Shown: positions 1,880-10,678 of the stretch, in pieces
Position numbering within the stretch: the first letter of the stretch is position 1
Layout of the letters: each line of letters begins with the position of its first letter
From: an uncultured virus (IMG/VR IMGVR_UViG_3300042315_000659)
Lineage: Duplodnaviria; Heunggongvirae; Uroviricota; Caudoviricetes
IMG/VR virus record: IMGVR_UViG_3300042315_000659
DNA: 20,000 nucleotides
Strand: one strand, 5' to 3'
Made by a program: the position numbers and the translations under genes
Notes under the pieces: model-generated
What the model saw: the letters and a program-made list of their open reading frames with translations, nothing else
What the model was told of the DNA's origin: nothing
The model's database searches: none

Positions 1880-4186
1880 TTAGATGATCGTTGCTAGTGA
1901 TTCTTTAAAAGGTACTGGATAACTTGAGCTTTGAAAAACCCGTATTGTATAAGCCGATTGGACTGACCCCCAATCGGCTATCTGTTGCGATTCTGTGTAA
2001 ACGACGCTTCGGGCTGACGATACTGACCATTCTCGTTTTACTGTGTCCCCGTCGTAAATTCTGACTACATAGCCGTCCAACTCTCCCGCTGCGTAAGCAA
2101 TGTCGATATAGTCGATCCAACGACCATTTAACCGCGTCCGTCGATACCAAGTAATAATTAAATCGTTGTTATCTTTTTCCCCTCTTACAGCACAAGGGAA
2201 AGGCTTCAATCCTTCTAAGGTGATTGTGTGAGAGACTTCCTCCTCTATATCGGTTTCAAGTAATCCATTAGGAACTACTTTTAATAAATATTCTCGATTA
2301 ATATCAGAAAGATTTAAGGGGAATCGAACTAAATAATTAGTTAGTAACACAAATTTTTCTCCTATTATATGCCTAGAGATAGCCGGTTCAGTTCCTTTGA
2401 CTCCACGAATTGTATATGAAATATCAAAGGTCAAGGGATTGTTGGACACAATAGCAGCATTTTTAAACGCTATAATTTCTCCAGTAGAAAACCAACCTAA
2501 TTGTTTGCCTGATAGAAATGTTTCAAGAGTAACTGGCTCTAATTGCCCTGAATTCATGATTACTCGTATCCAATTTAAATCGTCAATAAAACTAGGAGAA
2601 GCGTTGTTAAAATTTGGGGAGAAGCTTAATACAGTACCAGTTACGCTGTTGACAACATTGCCAACAGCAAAATCATAACTTAAGCCGTTGTCATCGGAAT
2701 AAAATAAGGCTCCTCTGTTAAAACTAGAGTTACCTTCAATTGCCACATAAATTCCTGCGTCGGCATCTCGGCTATTAACTATTGGGCATTCAATAGGAAT
2801 AGCGTTAGCGCGTCCGTAGGGACGAGGAGTGTTATTGTCTGGCGGAAATTCGTTATAGGAACGAGGAATGTTATTGTCATTGTCTGGCGGAAATTCGTTA
2901 TCTATAGGAATATCTGGCAAATATCCTACTCCTTGAAATCGAGCAGCTTCAATTTCAATTAAATAATTTACTCCTCTTACTTTCTTTGTAATTTGCATCA
3001 ATTCTTGATGGTAATTGTTATTATCATCAGTAAAAATTATATCCCCAACCTTTAAATTTTCCCATGCTGGTAATAAAAACATTTTTGAGAAAGTTTTTGA
3101 TTGCGTTTTCCCTAAAAAAAGAATTTTTGAGGCAATATTCATAAAAAACATATCTATGTCTATTAGCTTAGTTTGGAAACTAAGCTCGTTTGTGTGAGTA
3201 TCTGATGGGTCTTTAGCTACTGCGGTAATAGTTTCATAATTTTTTAAAACATTTAGTCCAGATACCGTAACGGCACTAGGGGTTTCTCTAAAATGAGTCA
3301 GTTTTTTTTCATTAAGGTCAATAGGATTTTCTCCAAATTTTTTAGACCCAAAAGAGCTTTTAGGGATAAAAATAGGATCAGATGATTGTTCTTGTCTTTT
3401 AAAAATGATTTTATCTTTTGGCTCCCCTGTCACAATAAAAAAAGCTCTCATAAGTTCTTCTAACTGATCAGCAAAAGATGTCCCATCAAACAATAAATCA
3501 AATCCTTGAATTTGGTAATCATTAGGAATATCAGTTACGTCAATTTGATCGTCTGTTCTACCAGCTAATTTACAAATAGTTTTCAAAATATCTTTTATTT
3601 TTGGATTGTTTCCACTTTCTCCAATCACTTCAACATCAATAGTAGGAAATCCAGTGCCGTCATAATTAGCAATCGGATAATTATTAAAAACTAAAAAAGA
3701 CATTCCAGTAAAAGCAGGTACTGGGTTGGATTCTTTTGACTGAATTACTGACGATGGTGTAGTTTGATTGCCAGTATAAATAGTTGTGTGTTCAATAAAT
3801 TTTAGGCTTTTTTCGTCATTGGTTTCAGAGTTGTAAACAAGGACGCTATTCATCCAAACTCGCCTAACAGAGCCAATTTTTCTAGCAATTGGATAAGCGG
3901 CTGTCAGAAAATAAGTGTAAACTTCGGTAGTTTGCCCACCACCACCACCTTTTCCGCCTTGTCTTTCGGACGTGACGACTTCCTTAAGGGGAATCCCCCA
4001 CATCATAGTTAGCCCTTCTTTCCTCACCCTTCCAAAAGGATAAGATAGGCTTCTGCCGTATTCAGCATCGGGAACACCAGTATCCTCAATTTTTCCTTTT
4101 TGTTGGGTAGGGGGTTTAGGAGCAAATAGAGATAATAATAGGTTAGCTCCGATCCCTATTGCTACGGGAATGAGAAAATTAGCCAC
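1880..4186 (-). CDS. Phage tail tip / host-specificity protein (GTA megatron / gpJ-like)
   Basis: 768 aa. N-terminal AEYGRSLSYPFGRVR..MMW..GGKGGGG..YTY, VPAFTGMSFLVF, central Phage-tail_3-like region and C-terminal ITWYRRTR, as in GTA-type tail proteins. Confidence 0.8.
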   Translation of the reverse strand: MANFLIPVAIGIGANLLLSLFAPKPPTQQKGKIEDTGVPDAEYGRSLSYPFGRVRKEGLTMMWGIPLKEVVTSERQGGKGGGGGQTTEVYTYFLTAAYPIARKIGSVRRVWMNSVLVYNSETNDEKSLKFIEHTTIYTGNQTTPSSVIQSKESNPVPAFTGMSFLVFNNYPIANYDGTGFPTIDVEVIGESGNNPKIKDILKTICKLAGRTDDQIDVTDIPNDYQIQGFDLLFDGTSFADQLEELMRAFFIVTGEPKDKIIFKRQEQSSDPIFIPKSSFGSKKFGENPIDLNEKKLTHFRETPSAVTVSGLNVLKNYETITAVAKDPSDTHTNELSFQTKLIDIDMFFMNIASKILFLGKTQSKTFSKMFLLPAWENLKVGDIIFTDDNNNYHQELMQITKKVRGVNYLIEIEAARFQGVGYLPDIPIDNEFPPDNDNNIPRSYNEFPPDNNTPRPYGRANAIPIECPIVNSRDADAGIYVAIEGNSSFNRGALFYSDDNGLSYDFAVGNVVNSVTGTVLSFSPNFNNASPSFIDDLNWIRVIMNSGQLEPVTLETFLSGKQLGWFSTGEIIAFKNAAIVSNNPLTFDISYTIRGVKGTEPAISRHIIGEKFVLLTNYLVRFPLNLSDINREYLLKVVPNGLLETDIEEEVSHTITLEGLKPFPCAVRGEKDNNDLIITWYRRTRLNGRWIDYIDIAYAAGELDGYVVRIYDGDTVKREWSVSSARSVVYTESQQIADWGSVQSAYTIRVFQSSSYPVPFKESLATII

Positions 4187-4220: not shown

Positions 4221-4293
4221 TAGGTTGAGTAGGAATCGAACCTACCTAAGACGAATTATGAGTTCGTTGCCTTAACCGCTCGGCCATCAACCC
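4221..4293 (-). tRNA. tRNA with CAT anticodon (Ile2 or elongator Met)
   Basis: Cloverleaf: acceptor GGGTTGA/TCAACCT, anticodon arm ACGAA-CTCATAA-TTCGT, T arm GTAGG-TTCGATT-CCTAC. No encoded CCA. Confidence 0.9.
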
Positions 4294-4298
4294 TTGAC

Positions 4299-4760
4299 CT
4301 ATTTAGGAAAAAATAAAGTAGGAGAGATATTAAAAAAATCGGCTAATTTTTGAACGTGAATATCTGTTATCTCTCGCTGCCTATTAAAAATATCATCTAG
4401 GATTGATTGATCCTCAAAAATAGATAGCAAATCTTGCTTTTGTAGGTTTCTTTCCTCTAATATGAATTTCAACAATTCAAGTCCATAAATATCAGGTATT
4501 GGCTCTTGATTTTCCTCATACTCATAATTTTCTTCATACTCATAAATCAAAGCTCCTAAAACACTTAAATACTCCCTTTCTTCTATTGTCAATTGAATTT
4601 TATCTAATATGATTTTATCTAAAAAAGAACTGATAACTCTTTCCGTGTTTTCTAGCCCTTCCTTGTCGTAAATAGGACGAGGAGGGTATTGTTTTAATAA
4701 TTCTAAGTATTTATTTGTATCAAACATAGTGTGACTGTAATCGCTGTAACTTTTTATCAT
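4299..4760 (-). CDS. HigA-like antitoxin / XRE-type HTH regulator (orphan)
   Basis: PPRPI...EEREYLSVLGALIYEYEE...LLKFILEERNLQKQDL..IF...REIT..HVQKLADFFNISP matches the HigA (COG5499-like) pattern. Confidence 0.75.
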   Translation of the reverse strand: MIKSYSDYSHTMFDTNKYLELLKQYPPRPIYDKEGLENTERVISSFLDKIILDKIQLTIEEREYLSVLGALIYEYEENYEYEENQEPIPDIYGLELLKFILEERNLQKQDLLSIFEDQSILDDIFNRQREITDIHVQKLADFFNISPTLFFPK

Positions 4761-4800: not shown

Positions 4801-4883
4801 TGGGTTAGGCTGGATTTGCACCAGCGTGGAATTAAATCTACAGATTTACAGTCTGTCACCTTCGGCTACTCGGTCACTAACCC
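4801..4883 (-). tRNA. tRNA-Tyr(GTA)
   Basis: Acceptor GGGTTAG/CTAACCC, anticodon arm ACAGA-CTGTAAA-TCTGT, long variable region, T arm GCTGG-TGCAAAT-CCAGC (atypical loop). No encoded CCA. Confidence 0.85.
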
Positions 4884-4941: not shown

Positions 4942-5487
4942 TCATATTGGTTTTTGATTTTCTTGATTCTTTTGAGATTCTTGCAAATTAAGAAGTTGAA
5001 GCATTGCTTCTCCTGCGTCTTTACGCGCCATGCTACAAGTCCAGAGTCTTTGTTCATTGCGCTTGATAATGATAATTTCTGTATTAGAAACTAAACAAAC
5101 TAAATCATTTTTCTGTTTTATTAGCTGATTAATAGCTTCTATTCGTTGCTCCTGTTCTAGTTGGGAAACGGGTTGAGGGTTTTCTCCATACTCTTGTGTG
5201 GAGAAAACAACAGCTAACATAAAACTTTTTGTTTCTTTAAACTGAAAACGAATAATCTGCCAACTGAATTCACCATCAGGTTCTAATTCTCGATTCCAAA
5301 TATTTAGAAAGGCTTGTAAATAACCTTCTAATCCTTTTTGAGTTTGACGGTTTTTATTAATATCGTTGAGAAGTCCTTGATTTTGTTGAGGATAGCTTTC
5401 AACAGGTTTTACTGACTCACTGTCTTGAATAGAGCAAGAATGACAAGAATTAAATGAAAACATAAAAGGCCTATTGGTTGCTATCAA
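4942..5487 (-). CDS. Hypothetical protein, possibly a stand-alone C-terminal domain of an N6-methyltransferase / type IIG R-M enzyme
   Basis: ORF with TTG start at 5487 or ATG at 5463. IWNRELEPDGEFSW and IIIIKRNEQRLWT.SMAR.DA recall C-termini of cyanobacterial N-6 DNA methylases (from memory, not searched). Confidence 0.45.
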   Translation of the reverse strand: MIATNRPFMFSFNSCHSCSIQDSESVKPVESYPQQNQGLLNDINKNRQTQKGLEGYLQAFLNIWNRELEPDGEFSWQIIRFQFKETKSFMLAVVFSTQEYGENPQPVSQLEQEQRIEAINQLIKQKNDLVCLVSNTEIIIIKRNEQRLWTCSMARKDAGEAMLQLLNLQESQKNQENQKPI

Positions 5488-6720: not shown

Positions 6721-6783
6721 GGTTTTGGAGTTTTGTTTTGTTTTCTTGCCTTAGTTTGCCTTGCCTTGTCTTGTATTTGTTTC

Positions 6784-7105
6784 CTTGCAATCTACTTAAC
6801 AAGTCAAGCCGATTGTTACAAAAAAGGAGATTAAAAATGTATAACGATTATAGCACTTGCAATCTACTTAACAAGTCAAGCCGATTGTTACTCCCCTAGA
6901 TAGCGAGGATCGGGAATTTTGGCAATGCTTGTAATCTACTTAACAAGTCAAGCCGATTATTACGTGGCAACGACCTATCGCCCTATCTGAATTGGCAACT
7001 TGCAATCTACTTAACAAGTCAAGCCGATTGTTACAAAACCCACCGATCCAGACACTTTAGCGGTTCTGGCTTGCAATCTACTTAACAAGTCAAGCCGATT
7101 GTTAC
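6784..7105 (-). CRISPR. CRISPR array: 5 repeats of 36 nt, 4 unique spacers of 35-36 nt
   Basis: Repeat (minus) GTAACAATCGGCTTGACTTGTTAAGTAGATTGCAAG at 6784-6819, 6856-6891, 6928-6963 (2 substitutions), 6999-7034 and 7070-7105. Spacers at 6820-6855, 6892-6927, 6964-6998 and 7035-7069. Orientation inferred from the ATTGCAAG 3' end and the adjacent gene. Confidence 0.97.
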
Positions 7106-8778
7106 CCAGTCTCCCAGAGTGTAAGCTGCGTATAGCCTGCGTTGACTGTTTGCGCGGGTTGCGAGTGGATCGACCTTTTCCTTGTTTTTTTCTTGGGTGT
7201 CACTGGCTCGGAGGTCAAAACCAGTAAGGTTTCGAGGGTTTCTTCCCCAAGTAACAATCGGCTGGACTTGTCAAGTAATTCCTCCTGCGCTGATTCCTTA
7301 TCGAAATCCTTCAGAGGCTTAACTTCCCCGGTACAAGCCGGGTAGCTTCTTACGAAGTCTGCTTTCCCTAAGATGTTGATTGCGGCGGCCACATCTCTGG
7401 GTAAAGTACATCCACACTCTAAACATTTATGGGTGCGGGTTGATAAACTTTTTTTAACACGATTGCCACAGCGAGGACAATCCTGACTGGTGTAAGCTGG
7501 TTGAACCTTGATAAACTCTCGGTTGGGAGTTTTCATTTTCGTTTCAAGAAAACCGGTTAATTGTCCTAAACTAGCATCAGCAAAGGATTTATTTAATCCC
7601 CCTTTGGCTTTCGCGTTATTGCGTTCGTAGCCTTTACCGTCTTCTCTTTTTTTCGGTTTAGGTCGTCGCATTAAATTCTTTAAGTTGAGGTCTTCTACGG
7701 CTACAGCGCCATGATTTTTGACAATATCGGTACTTAGGGCATGATTAAATCCTTTGCGTTGTCTTGCTATTTTTTCGTGAGTTTTAGCAACTTTAGCACG
7801 AGTTTTAGCGAGATTTTTGCCGTCTTTATTTTCCCCTGCTTTATACTGTCTAGCGGTTTTTCTTTGCAGTCTTGCTAGTCTTTTTTGCTGTTTTCTATAG
7901 TATTTGGGCGGGTCAATTTGTTGGCCGTCGCTGGTACTAATTATATATTCTAGTCCTACGTCAATACCGATTGCTTTATCGGAATCAGGTAGATCATCTA
8001 CTTCAAATTCACCAAATAGACTTAGATAATATCCCGATGGGTATTTGATAATTGATACGGTAGAGGCTTTTCTGTCACCCCATCGAATGTCTAAAATATT
8101 GTTGATAATCTTTAAATCGCCTAATGTTTTACTACAGCTACCTATAGATATTTTATCCCCTTTTCTAACAGCGCAATTGCTGATCTCAGAATAAAGAGAT
8201 TTAATTTTATCTTCTTTTCTTTTAAATCTAGGAAGTTTTCTGTCTAAATTCTTTTTATCGAGTTTGGTGTAAGCTTTCCAGGAATCAGCAAGCTTTTTTA
8301 AAACCCCTTGGACAAAAGCCATAGGGATGTCCTTGCATAGCTCTGGACATTTTTCTTTTGTAATACAGCCACATAACCCAAAATAATTATCAGATTTTAA
8401 CCGCCGTTGAATAGGAATATGAACAGGATAAGAGTGACCTGCTTTTTGTCTTTTTTCTCTAGCTATCTGTATTTTAACTTTTTGCTTGCCAGTTAAATAT
8501 TTAGGGGTGTAAAGGGGATTAGGAAGGGATTTACCTTTTTCGTTTTTCAGGGAGTCAATAAATTGAGGTTTTTTAGCTAAACGACGTTTAACCCGTTTAA
8601 CTGGTTTTTTTGTTATTTTCTCAAGCTCGTCGTAATATTTATTAAGCTGATATTCCATCAGTAGCTCTAGTCCAAAATTCCAGACAGCTTTAAGCTCGTC
8701 CATCCAGCGATCAATATAGGCTCGCTGAGTGGCATTAAGGTTAAGTTTTATGTCCGCAATAGTTTTCTTGACTAGCAT
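7102..8778 (-). CDS. tnpB: TnpB / Cas12f-like RNA-guided nuclease (CRISPR-associated, type V-like), 558 aa
   Basis: N-terminal HTH_OrfB-like KLNLNATQRAYIDRWM..VWN, RuvC-I IGIDVG, bridge helix, RuvC-II VAVEDL, Zn ribbon CPRC/CLEC and RuvC-III RDVAAAINI. All three catalytic acidic residues are present. Confidence 0.92.
   Translation of the reverse strand: MLVKKTIADIKLNLNATQRAYIDRWMDELKAVWNFGLELLMEYQLNKYYDELEKITKKPVKRVKRRLAKKPQFIDSLKNEKGKSLPNPLYTPKYLTGKQKVKIQIAREKRQKAGHSYPVHIPIQRRLKSDNYFGLCGCITKEKCPELCKDIPMAFVQGVLKKLADSWKAYTKLDKKNLDRKLPRFKRKEDKIKSLYSEISNCAVRKGDKISIGSCSKTLGDLKIINNILDIRWGDRKASTVSIIKYPSGYYLSLFGEFEVDDLPDSDKAIGIDVGLEYIISTSDGQQIDPPKYYRKQQKRLARLQRKTARQYKAGENKDGKNLAKTRAKVAKTHEKIARQRKGFNHALSTDIVKNHGAVAVEDLNLKNLMRRPKPKKREDGKGYERNNAKAKGGLNKSFADASLGQLTGFLETKMKTPNREFIKVQPAYTSQDCPRCGNRVKKSLSTRTHKCLECGCTLPRDVAAAINILGKADFVRSYPACTGEVKPLKDFDKESAQEELLDKSSRLLLGEETLETLLVLTSEPVTPKKKTRKRSIHSQPAQTVNAGYTQLTLWETG
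7251..7345 (-). ncRNA. Putative tracrRNA / omegaRNA-derived scaffold inside the nuclease ORF
   Basis: Plus strand 7251-7277 GTAACAATCGGCTgGACTTGTcAAGTA matches 25/27 nt of the repeat in inverted orientation (anti-repeat). Upstream on the minus strand lie hairpin CCCGG-CTTGTA-CCGGG, linker GAAGTTAAG and stem CCTCTG...CAGGAGG. Boundaries are approximate. Confidence 0.8.
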
Positions 8779-8814
8779 GGCTTTTATGGATCGACCTTCT
8801 TTTATTCTTATTTA

Positions 8815-8844
8815 AATCTACCATAACCCTGCTAGAAATGTCAA
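8815..8844 (-). promoter_or_regulatory. Putative promoter of the nuclease/CRISPR transcript
   Basis: Minus strand TTGACA-18 nt-TAGATT with a TG extended -10. Part of a 32-bp sequence duplicated at 9264-9295. Confidence 0.6.
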
Positions 8845-8853
8845 GTAAGAAGT

Positions 8854-9222: not shown

Positions 9223-9263
9223 AACTTATAGTAGAAAAAGGTGCTAAACTATATTTGACTTAC

Positions 9264-9295
9264 TTAAATCTACCATAAGCCTACTAGAAATGTCA
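9264..9295. repeat. 32-bp direct repeat of 8812-8843
   Basis: ttaaatctaccataagcctactagaaatgtca vs ttaaatctaccataaccctgctagaaatgtca, 30/32 identical. Confidence 0.85.
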
Positions 9296-9430
9296 GATAA
9301 AAATTATTATCCTCTTAACGTCCGTACATCAGAATCAGAAGAGAAAAAGCTAAAAAACTACTGTAAAACCCGGAAGCGGTCAATAACCGATGTAGTCCGG
9401 GAATTGATTAGAAGTTTACCCGATGACTGA
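9290..9430 (+). CDS. Ribbon-helix-helix (CopG-like) regulator, 46 aa, below the ORF-track cutoff
   Basis: MSDKNYYPLNVRTSESEEKKLKNYCKTRKRSITDVVRELIRSLPDD: beta strand LNVR, helix, then S-I-T-D-V-V-R-E-L-I helix. Followed by a terminator-like hairpin. Confidence 0.8.
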   Translation: MSDKNYYPLNVRTSESEEKKLKNYCKTRKRSITDVVRELIRSLPDD

Positions 9431-10394: not shown

Positions 10395-10428
10395 AGTGTC
10401 CTATGCTGGCAGTCATTGTTAGTTTGTA

Positions 10429-10678
10429 GTTAGATTGTAGATATTGTTATTAACAATAGAACCCTTGATATATATAGCTTCTAGACTTTGTTAATACTGT
10501 TAACGCTATCCCCCGATATTATTTTTTTACGCTCTTATTGCTGAGACTGTCTTTCCTTTTTACCCTATTTTCTTTTTTCCTCTATACAGTATTAACAGCA
10601 TCAACAAAGTCTAGAACCTTTACAGGGTAACGGTTTCGATTGTTAATAACCCTATTAACAATCGAAATACAATCTAAC
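10429..10678. repeat. Palindromic non-coding element, copy 2
   Basis: Terminal inverted repeat gttagattgta/tacaatctaac, inner arms ttctagactttgttaatactgttaa / ttaacagcatcaacaaagtctagaa, and hairpin cgattgttaata-accc-tattaacaatcg. Confidence 0.8.

Follow-up and report, generated by a model that had tools for sequence, protein, structure and literature searches.

It is highly probable that the 20,000-nucleotide stretch of DNA analysed here (hereafter, the window) carries a phage-borne CRISPR module of type V-U2, in which the tracrRNA is located within the nuclease gene, the spacers are directed at plasmids and the nuclease ends in a tail resembling the peptides that bind the beta sliding clamp. 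An untested Cas12 subtype, which is printed as tracrRNA-free, would in this way gain a guide architecture, a candidate PAM and natural targets, and these predictions are directly testable.

Effector Gene and CRISPR Array

The effector gene (7102..8778, minus strand) encodes a protein of 558 amino acids, which passed the NCBIfam model NF038192 for C2c8 (type V-U2) with 371.5 bits against the cut-off of 350, and which had no match to the C2c9 family. Its RuvC triad (D273, E362 and the RuvC-III residue D462, encoded at 7393-7395) and its zinc finger are intact, and the three residues of the triad are unchanged across 66 aligned homologues. In a FastTree phylogeny 14 C2c8-like proteins are separated from 10 TnpBs with a support of 1.000. 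The AlphaFold2 model of the effector is confident up to approximately residue 480, with the exception of one insertion, and from residue 485 onward pLDDT is mostly below 50, which indicates a disordered tail; in fold it is closest to Cas12p and TnpB. Neither cas1 nor cas2 was found among the ORFs examined in the window.

A sigma-70-like promoter of the effector gene is predicted by pattern matching at 8815..8844 (minus strand; 10 of 12 consensus positions, extended -10). It lies in a 45-nt element (8807-8851) that is present again at 9259-9303, the two copies bracketing a 122-aa ORF. Divergently from the effector, a ribbon-helix-helix-like ORF of 46 aa (9290..9430, plus strand) matches Pfam ParG at E 0.006, under the gathering score, and has no match in NCBIfam. 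This ORF is possibly a relic of an IS605 Arc-type repressor; the arrangement resembles the IS605 arc-tnpB layout, as far as the latter is described in the available part of bioRxiv 10.64898/2026.09.24.754181.

The CRISPR array (6784..7105, minus strand) consists of five repeats of 36 nt and four spacers (7035-7069, 6964-6998, 6892-6927 and 6820-6855), and the stop codon of the effector falls within repeat 1. The last repeat is followed by an A-rich low-complexity tandem run (6740-6783), the length of which differs between related phages. A promoter-like site (6847-6874, minus strand; 10/12 matches and an extended -10), made of a repeat and the last spacer, faces the genes downstream of the array.

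The Predicted RNA within the Nuclease Gene

The first-pass annotation had claimed that on the minus-strand transcript the RuvC-III codons are followed by two hairpins, a linker and an anti-repeat, and all of these elements are indeed found there. Stem 1 (7327..7344, minus strand, as are all the following parts) lies 51 nt past the D462 codon and is formed by CCCGG (7338-7342) and CCGGG (7327-7331) around a loop at 7332-7337. The conserved linker GAAGTTAAG (7318-7326) separates it from the long stem, in which CCTCTG (7312-7317) pairs with CAGGAGG (7281-7287) and which contains an inner hairpin (7303-7308 with 7292-7297). The linker and the long stem compose the RNA core (7281..7326), and the same core occurs at the ends of TnpB insertion sequences. 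The anti-repeat (7251..7280) pairs with nucleotides 1-31 of the repeat, and the pairing claimed for it was reproduced exactly: 28 Watson-Crick pairs, one G-U pair, one mismatch and one bulged repeat base.

The 27-nt repeat pattern, with up to three mismatches allowed, has six matches in the window, namely the five array copies and the anti-repeat as the sole antisense one, and 200 shuffles gave none. The duplex energy is -41.4 kcal/mol, whereas 2000 shuffled repeats average -17.0 (sd 2.6) and reach -29.2 at best. The region 7245-7400 folded alone is not more stable than its shuffles (z -0.25, 77 of 200 shuffles as good), and the hairpins rest therefore on covariation and not on energy. Rfam contained no family for the embedded RNA at E up to 1, and no internal promoter for the RNA was found on the minus strand from 8394 to 6874. 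Metatranscriptome contigs from four runs cover parts of the locus (X1, 7070-7512; X3, 7076-7281); they are not counted as support, because strand, ends and level cannot be read from contigs.

Covariation and Natural Variation across C2c8 Loci

Loci of C2c8 were gathered from viral, genome and metagenome collections, which provided 107 loci above 300 bits and, among them, 31 distinct sequences of the RNA region; a search of 401 genomes related to G001 found G001 as the only positive. For the pairing statistic 16 loci with at least two repeats were retained, and most near-duplicates, two TnpBs and array-less loci were dropped. A pseudoknot is predicted in the window between bases 7334-7337 of the stem 1 loop and the four bases that end the repeat, and in 16/16 loci all four positions are paired with the loop bases at a fixed stem 1 offset. 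Five pairing types are represented (CTTG:CAAG in nine loci, CTTT:AAAG, CTTG:TAAG and GTTT:AAAC in two each, CTTC:GAAG in one), and both outer positions, 1 and 4, exhibit double changes with both strands altered. As many as 62 of the 64 cells are Watson-Crick pairs, compared with a mean of 51.8 for permuted repeats, and 0 of 20000 permutations reached 62, a figure that is not a clean probability because the 16 loci are related and nine of them share one pairing type. Four further loci, in which the repeat is single or degenerate (L039, L057, L119, L131), also pair 4/4, but they were chosen with the loop already known and stay outside the statistic. Judging from these joint changes, the predicted pseudoknot is what ties each array to its own gene; it is the strongest evidence for the RNA and had gone unmentioned in the first-pass annotation.

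As to the hairpins, stem 1 is 100% paired in nine sequences, with double changes in three of its five pairs. Across the 16 pairs of the core 91.7% of cells are paired in nine sequences, and ten pairs show double changes; the controls gave 68.8% (shuffles) and 39-51% (slid), the core structure having been derived from the same alignment that scored its pairing. The RNA is retained even where the reading frame does not extend across it, namely in L132, where a stop codon precedes it, and in the cyanophage locus CL131, where a stop codon lies inside it.

These observations bear on the view that V-U2 is tracrRNA-free, its effector processing its own crRNA and the motif within the gene being a dead omegaRNA relic or a stretch conserved for the protein. 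Such a view agrees with the literature, since no tracrRNA was found around the V-U2 locus of cyanophage vB_AphaS-CL131 (available part of PMC6293099) and V-U2 is listed without a tracrRNA and without a PAM in Table 1 of PMC11641405, as well as with the shuffle-like folding of the region; but the loop and the repeat end change together, the core covaries and survives outside the frame, and the CL131 locus itself possesses both the stem 1 loop match and an anti-repeat, which makes this explanation very improbable. The presence of a covarying tracrRNA-like element leads us to read the printed "no tracrRNA" entry for V-U2 as a probable error and not as a defining trait.

The CL131 locus (L173, about 3990-4030) carries in addition a copy of the last ten repeat bases directly after the anti-repeat, which would yield a one-piece guide RNA whose guide sequence is fixed; the tail motif discussed below is still readable there downstream of the stop inside the RNA. 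Extra copies of the RNA core, each followed by hairpins, were noticed at L128:3019-3088 and L131:2262-2328, one of them inserted within a c2c8 gene and the other isolated and preceded by a promoter-like sequence.

Among 65 near-identical loci (duplicates counted) the 96-nt RNA region contains six variable sites. Read by hand, all five of the sites that fall in predicted pairs toggle between G-U and Watson-Crick pairing, three of them altering the protein, and the anti-repeat sites 7271 and 7272 occur as three natural alleles, all of which preserve pairing. Variation in the RNA is not depleted in these loci (6.2 sites per 100 nt versus 6.6 in the rest of the gene).

At the family level it is the anti-repeat that is weak. 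Adjacent to the pseudoknot it outperforms shuffles (p <=0.05) in no more than 6 of the 16 loci, and in just 3 of 16 is the own repeat the best partner in terms of duplex energy; the long 30-nt anti-repeat is, on sequence grounds, lineage-specific and not family-wide. It might be supposed that the long anti-repeat stems for the most part from a recent inverted duplication of a repeat, the pseudoknot and a short duplex being what matters and the rest serving crRNA processing or nothing. The short or weak complementarity of most relatives and the Cas12p structure, which resolves only ten repeat nucleotides, speak for it; the preservation of pairing by the three alleles at 7271-7272, and the exact coincidence of the start of the anti-repeat with that of the terminal hairpin in TnpB ends, speak against it, and we regard this supposition as rather unlikely.

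Relation to the OmegaRNA of TnpB Elements

A covariance model trained on nine C2c8 cores gave 18 matches in 88 sources, including the untrained C2c8 loci L043, L130, L171, L172 and L187, and missed eight C2c8 loci whose core is longer or altered. The model weakly matches phage TnpB (L137 and L139, E 0.013), and in the family of the cyanobacterium Chroococcus FPU101 it matches 11 of 89 genomes. In G404 (eight copies) and G417 (four copies) the core is followed by the terminal hairpin, then by a strand complementary to the stem 1 loop and then by unrelated flanks, and these copies, from cyanobacterial elements of IS605/IS607 type, sit mostly behind tnpB genes. In the window, it is the anti-repeat that follows the core directly, at the place taken by the terminal hairpin in the TnpB element ends. 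The comparison of the covariance model with IS605 omegaRNAs had been set beforehand as a test, and with the G404 and G417 copies it came out as predicted. The earlier proposal, according to which the terminal hairpin has been replaced by an anti-repeat:repeat duplex, the omegaRNA being split in two, thus gains the support of homology with TnpB element ends, because the core model finds TnpB ends with a hairpin at the site of the duplex; the anti-repeat would accordingly take the place of the omegaRNA terminal hairpin, an assignment supported by sequence comparison. In the available part of PMC10097598, stem 4 of the omegaRNA is said to correspond to the repeat:anti-repeat duplex, and a pseudoknot of this kind is described for TnpB and Cas12 guides. 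The split of omegaRNA into tracrRNA and crRNA is in this way seen in a further lineage, with close transposon relatives.

Spacers and Their Targets

Two spacers of the window match plasmid-like contigs (7035-7069 with 6/35 mismatches and 6892-6927 with 4/36), one of the two matches having a TT flank, and the two others (6964-6998 and 6820-6855) have no plasmid match. Arrays sharing the repeat of the window contain 84 distinct spacers. At <=20% mismatch 50 of them match nine contigs (79,628 bp in total) and reversed spacers match none, a share that is biased because the target contigs were found through the spacers, by spacer searches in 89 cyanobacterial genomes; contigs L285-L287 (0, 1 and 1 matches) were removed before the final count, and 34 of the 84 spacers are without a match. 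The contigs L281, L282 and L302, matched by 20, 25 and 8 spacers, are 8.8-9.2 kb long and have overlapping ends. The genes of L282 include those for a DUF3987 protein and a tyrosine recombinase, and this contig is similar to plasmid p1 of M. aeruginosa NIES-2549 (75% over 35%). The 5' flank is TT in 10 of the 14 best matches (<=10% mismatch) and in 27 of 50 overall, against a background of 9.7%, and is absent in 23 of the 50 matched spacers. The spacers had no match in the rest of the window, and those of the L015 array gave one chance match in GenBank phages and none in PLSDB.

Related phages harbor a second, distant C2c8 module (L171, L172, L015:1450-1990, L263), the repeat of which resembles the type I-D repeat of the host. 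Eight of its 14 spacers match the same plasmids, mostly with GTN flanks, and its last spacer has 31 nt in common with the window spacer 6820-6855, which suggests module swaps at one site. The assignment of this sister module (L171) to Cas12p was considered and rejected (E 6e-19 only).

The targets could be satellites parasitising the phage, and not ordinary plasmids, in a conflict of the ICP1-versus-PLE type. The heavy and repeated hits on these three circles in the 7-9 kb class, their primase-type and tyrosine-recombinase genes, the hits of the second C2c8 module on the same elements and short stretches common to the elements and the phage genomes all fit this idea, which we consider with some reserve: no capsid, terminase or packaging gene was recognised, the named relative was deposited as a plasmid, and one of the common stretches is a simple tandem repeat found also in another host contig. 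Taken as plasmids, the targets point to a conflict between phage and plasmids in Microcystis.

Phage and Host

The window is a part of a tailed-phage genome with baseplate, NlpC/P60 and Rha-family genes and two tRNAs (4221-4293 and 4801-4883); an ORF of 2840 aa would, on our reading and not from a database match, encode the tape-measure protein. Near-identical loci occur on 38 viral contigs, the largest of them reaching 90 kb. The baseplate gene is matched by five spacers (1-4 mismatches, GTT/GTC flanks) in arrays on three cyanobacterial genome contigs, and one of these anti-phage arrays comes after cas6, cas4 and cas1d, near recA; its repeat is the type I-D repeat of Microcystis aeruginosa FACHB-524 as given in Table 2 of PMC11855584. 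On these grounds the host is most likely the bloom-forming cyanobacterium Microcystis. The flank of the host type I-D system is GTN and thus differs from the TT seen with the V-U2 spacers.

Several further features were noticed in this setting. A second C2c8 type is located on host-like contigs (L344:2653-8266 and L345:9350-12542, i.e., G453:C171 and G454:C81, and L330 of G448), behind cas6 (in L346 cas4-cas1 are there) and ahead of the type I-D array targeting this phage; possibly, a phage C2c8 module was captured by the type I-D locus of the host. In the window, a non-coding element of ~240 nt with internal inverted repeats occurs twice, at 1590-1830 and 10418-10678, 8.8 kb apart. ORFs 4299-4760 and 4942-5487, located between the two tRNA genes inside the tail module, are ~77-79% identical to host chromosomal DNA, and one of them has a weak HTH match.

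The C-Terminal Tail

The disordered tail of the effector ends, after a basic patch, with QLTLW (residues 551-555; 7114..7128, minus strand), which resembles a beta-clamp-binding motif. The RuvC-III site was located in 85 of 94 C2c8-like proteins, 74 of which have tails of at least 60 aa. Within the last 25 residues of these long tails QLxL[W/F] or QLxLxL is present in 58 of 74 cases, the corresponding figures being 9 of 235 for internal windows and 0.6% for shuffles, with the pattern written once the alignment had been seen. Behind RuvC-III the tails are difficult to align and of very different lengths, and still the motif stands at their end, in five- and six-residue forms. In 18 loci its codons vary synonymously, which argues that selection acts on the tail peptide. 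In the available part of PMC3971601, QLSL[F/L] on a flexible C-terminus is given as the consensus for clamp binding, and cyanobacterial IS200/IS605 OrfB is already listed with a putative motif of this kind. A QLxL[F/L]-type motif on a flexible C-terminus is thus common to the clamp clients and to the window effector, which differs in having Trp as the last residue of the motif.

Residues 523-558 were modelled with the DnaN of Synechocystis, another cyanobacterium than the host, and gave a score of 0.68 versus 0.02 for the best control, with contacts at residues 548-555; of the solved pairs 51 of 78 reach the mark used for such models, of the mismatched ones 2 of 108. The runs agree in at least 84% of contacts, and the partner pLDDT is 45-47. 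Complexes of the clamp with peptides have solved structures; the model consequently shows likeness and not binding, and its score may reflect those known structures.

We propose, tentatively, that the effector is a clamp-tethered V-U2 nuclease: the same 290-nt stretch would serve as tracrRNA and as a flexible leash docking, as modelled, on the beta sliding clamp of the host, which would steer the nuclease to replicating DNA, so that small plasmids or satellites would be destroyed, whether competitors or parasites of the phage. If the tail does bind DnaN, a CRISPR effector would be coupled to the replication clamp, of which we found no report. Alternatively, the RNA is as described and the tail is a dispensable passenger, QLxLW being a leftover or binding something other than the clamp. 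We see this as a real possibility, considering that tails are dispensable in ISDra2 TnpB (PMC10097598) and in Cas12n (bioRxiv 10.64898/2026.03.27.714800), according to the available parts of both sources, that the tail is lost or cut in four loci (L132, L134, L172 and CL131), that the OrfB motif was listed as putative (same part of PMC3971601), and that the last residue is Trp rather than Phe. A mere passenger is difficult to reconcile, however, with the persistence of the motif at the end of very different tails, with its synonymous codons and two forms, and with a modelled DnaN interface that coincides exactly with residues 548-555.

Proposed Mechanism

In the mechanism we suppose, a single transcript would start at the promoter near 8830 and cover both the nuclease gene and the array, since a promoter-like site is present at 8815-8844, with no other found for the RNA itself. 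A tracrRNA of ~95-110 nt would then be released from the 3' end of the mRNA by the nuclease or by RNases of the host, like in TnpB and Cas12n. According to the covariation, this tracrRNA would fold into the omegaRNA core, and its anti-repeat and first loop would pair with the repeat of the crRNA. As the protospacers and the intact RuvC triad suggest, the complex would cut double-stranded DNA beside 5'-TT, its targets being mostly small primase-and-recombinase plasmids of a Microcystis-type host, with the spacers presumably supplied by the host. The frame would usually stay open across the RNA for the sake of a terminal peptide that is selected at the protein level. The least certain step is the nature of this peptide, which would most likely be a beta-clamp-binding motif inherited from cyanobacterial IS605 TnpB. 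One practical consequence is that recoding of the effector gene for expression would destroy the guide RNA.

Comparison with Known Systems

The CL131 locus is of the same subtype (38% identity) and is likewise a minimal phage locus; it differs in a stop codon that removes the tail, and one of its spacers was reported against a primase pseudogene (available part of PMC6293099). The accessible parts of PMC12669027 and PMC10691335 do not mention a V-U2 RNA, and PMC12721324, in its accessible part, deals with a tracrRNA-free family. We found in the literature no description of a V-U2 tracrRNA, no clamp motif on a Cas12 and no report of these plasmid targets; three papers (Jin 2025, Tordoff 2025, Chen 2023) may already cover V-U2.

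With TnpB and its omegaRNA the window system shares, by sequence, the RNA core and the pseudoknot overlapping the gene end. In TnpB elements a single RNA is closed by the terminal hairpin at the transposon end, whereas in the window there are an anti-repeat and an array instead; the guides, unlike those of TnpB elements, come from the array, and no tnpA is seen at the window. The partner strand of the pseudoknot is formed by the last four bases in the window and lies two bases earlier in the G404/G417 elements.

Cas12p (type V-P, PDB 9JFS) is the top fold match of the effector (E 1.4e-20), and a RuvC insertion motif is common to both. It is phage-borne, with a tracrRNA forming a -1 to -4 pseudoknot (available part of bioRxiv 10.1101/2025.01.20.633832). 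At 19% identity it is not a close sequence family of the window effector; it has a thioredoxin-binding domain, and its PAM is GTN, while the flank in the window is TT.

In Cas12n (type V-N, formerly V-U4/C2c9) the tracrRNA overlaps the ORF and lies in the disordered C-terminal tail, as described in the available part of PMC12216341. This location, the separate array and the pseudoknot with the repeat end make it similar, as far as sequence and that source go, to the predicted window system. Cas12n belongs, however, to C2c9, a protein family different from C2c8; its PAM is A-rich, whereas the protospacer flank deduced for the window is 5'-TT, and its tail is called dispensable, whereas that of the window ends in a conserved motif. 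RdCas12n (9J09) is a fold match at E 2.2e-16, below TnpB and Cas12p.

TranC combines a TnpB-like effector with a reRNA split into tracrRNA and crRNA, and some TranC are phage-borne (Jin 2025 as cited in PMC13639567, and bioRxiv 10.64898/2026.03.27.714800, both as far as available). The likeness of the window system to TranC follows from the core homology and the duplex position, and is a predicted one; the TranC clades examined have, in the available part of the preprint, no tail carrying the tracrRNA, unlike the window, and LaTranC is only a weak match (E 5e-6). The idea of a split omegaRNA has been published already for TnpB, Cas12n and TranC, and the sequence comparisons support its extension to V-U2. 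They likewise support the conclusion that the window system would work like Cas12n and TranC, yet belongs to V-U2.
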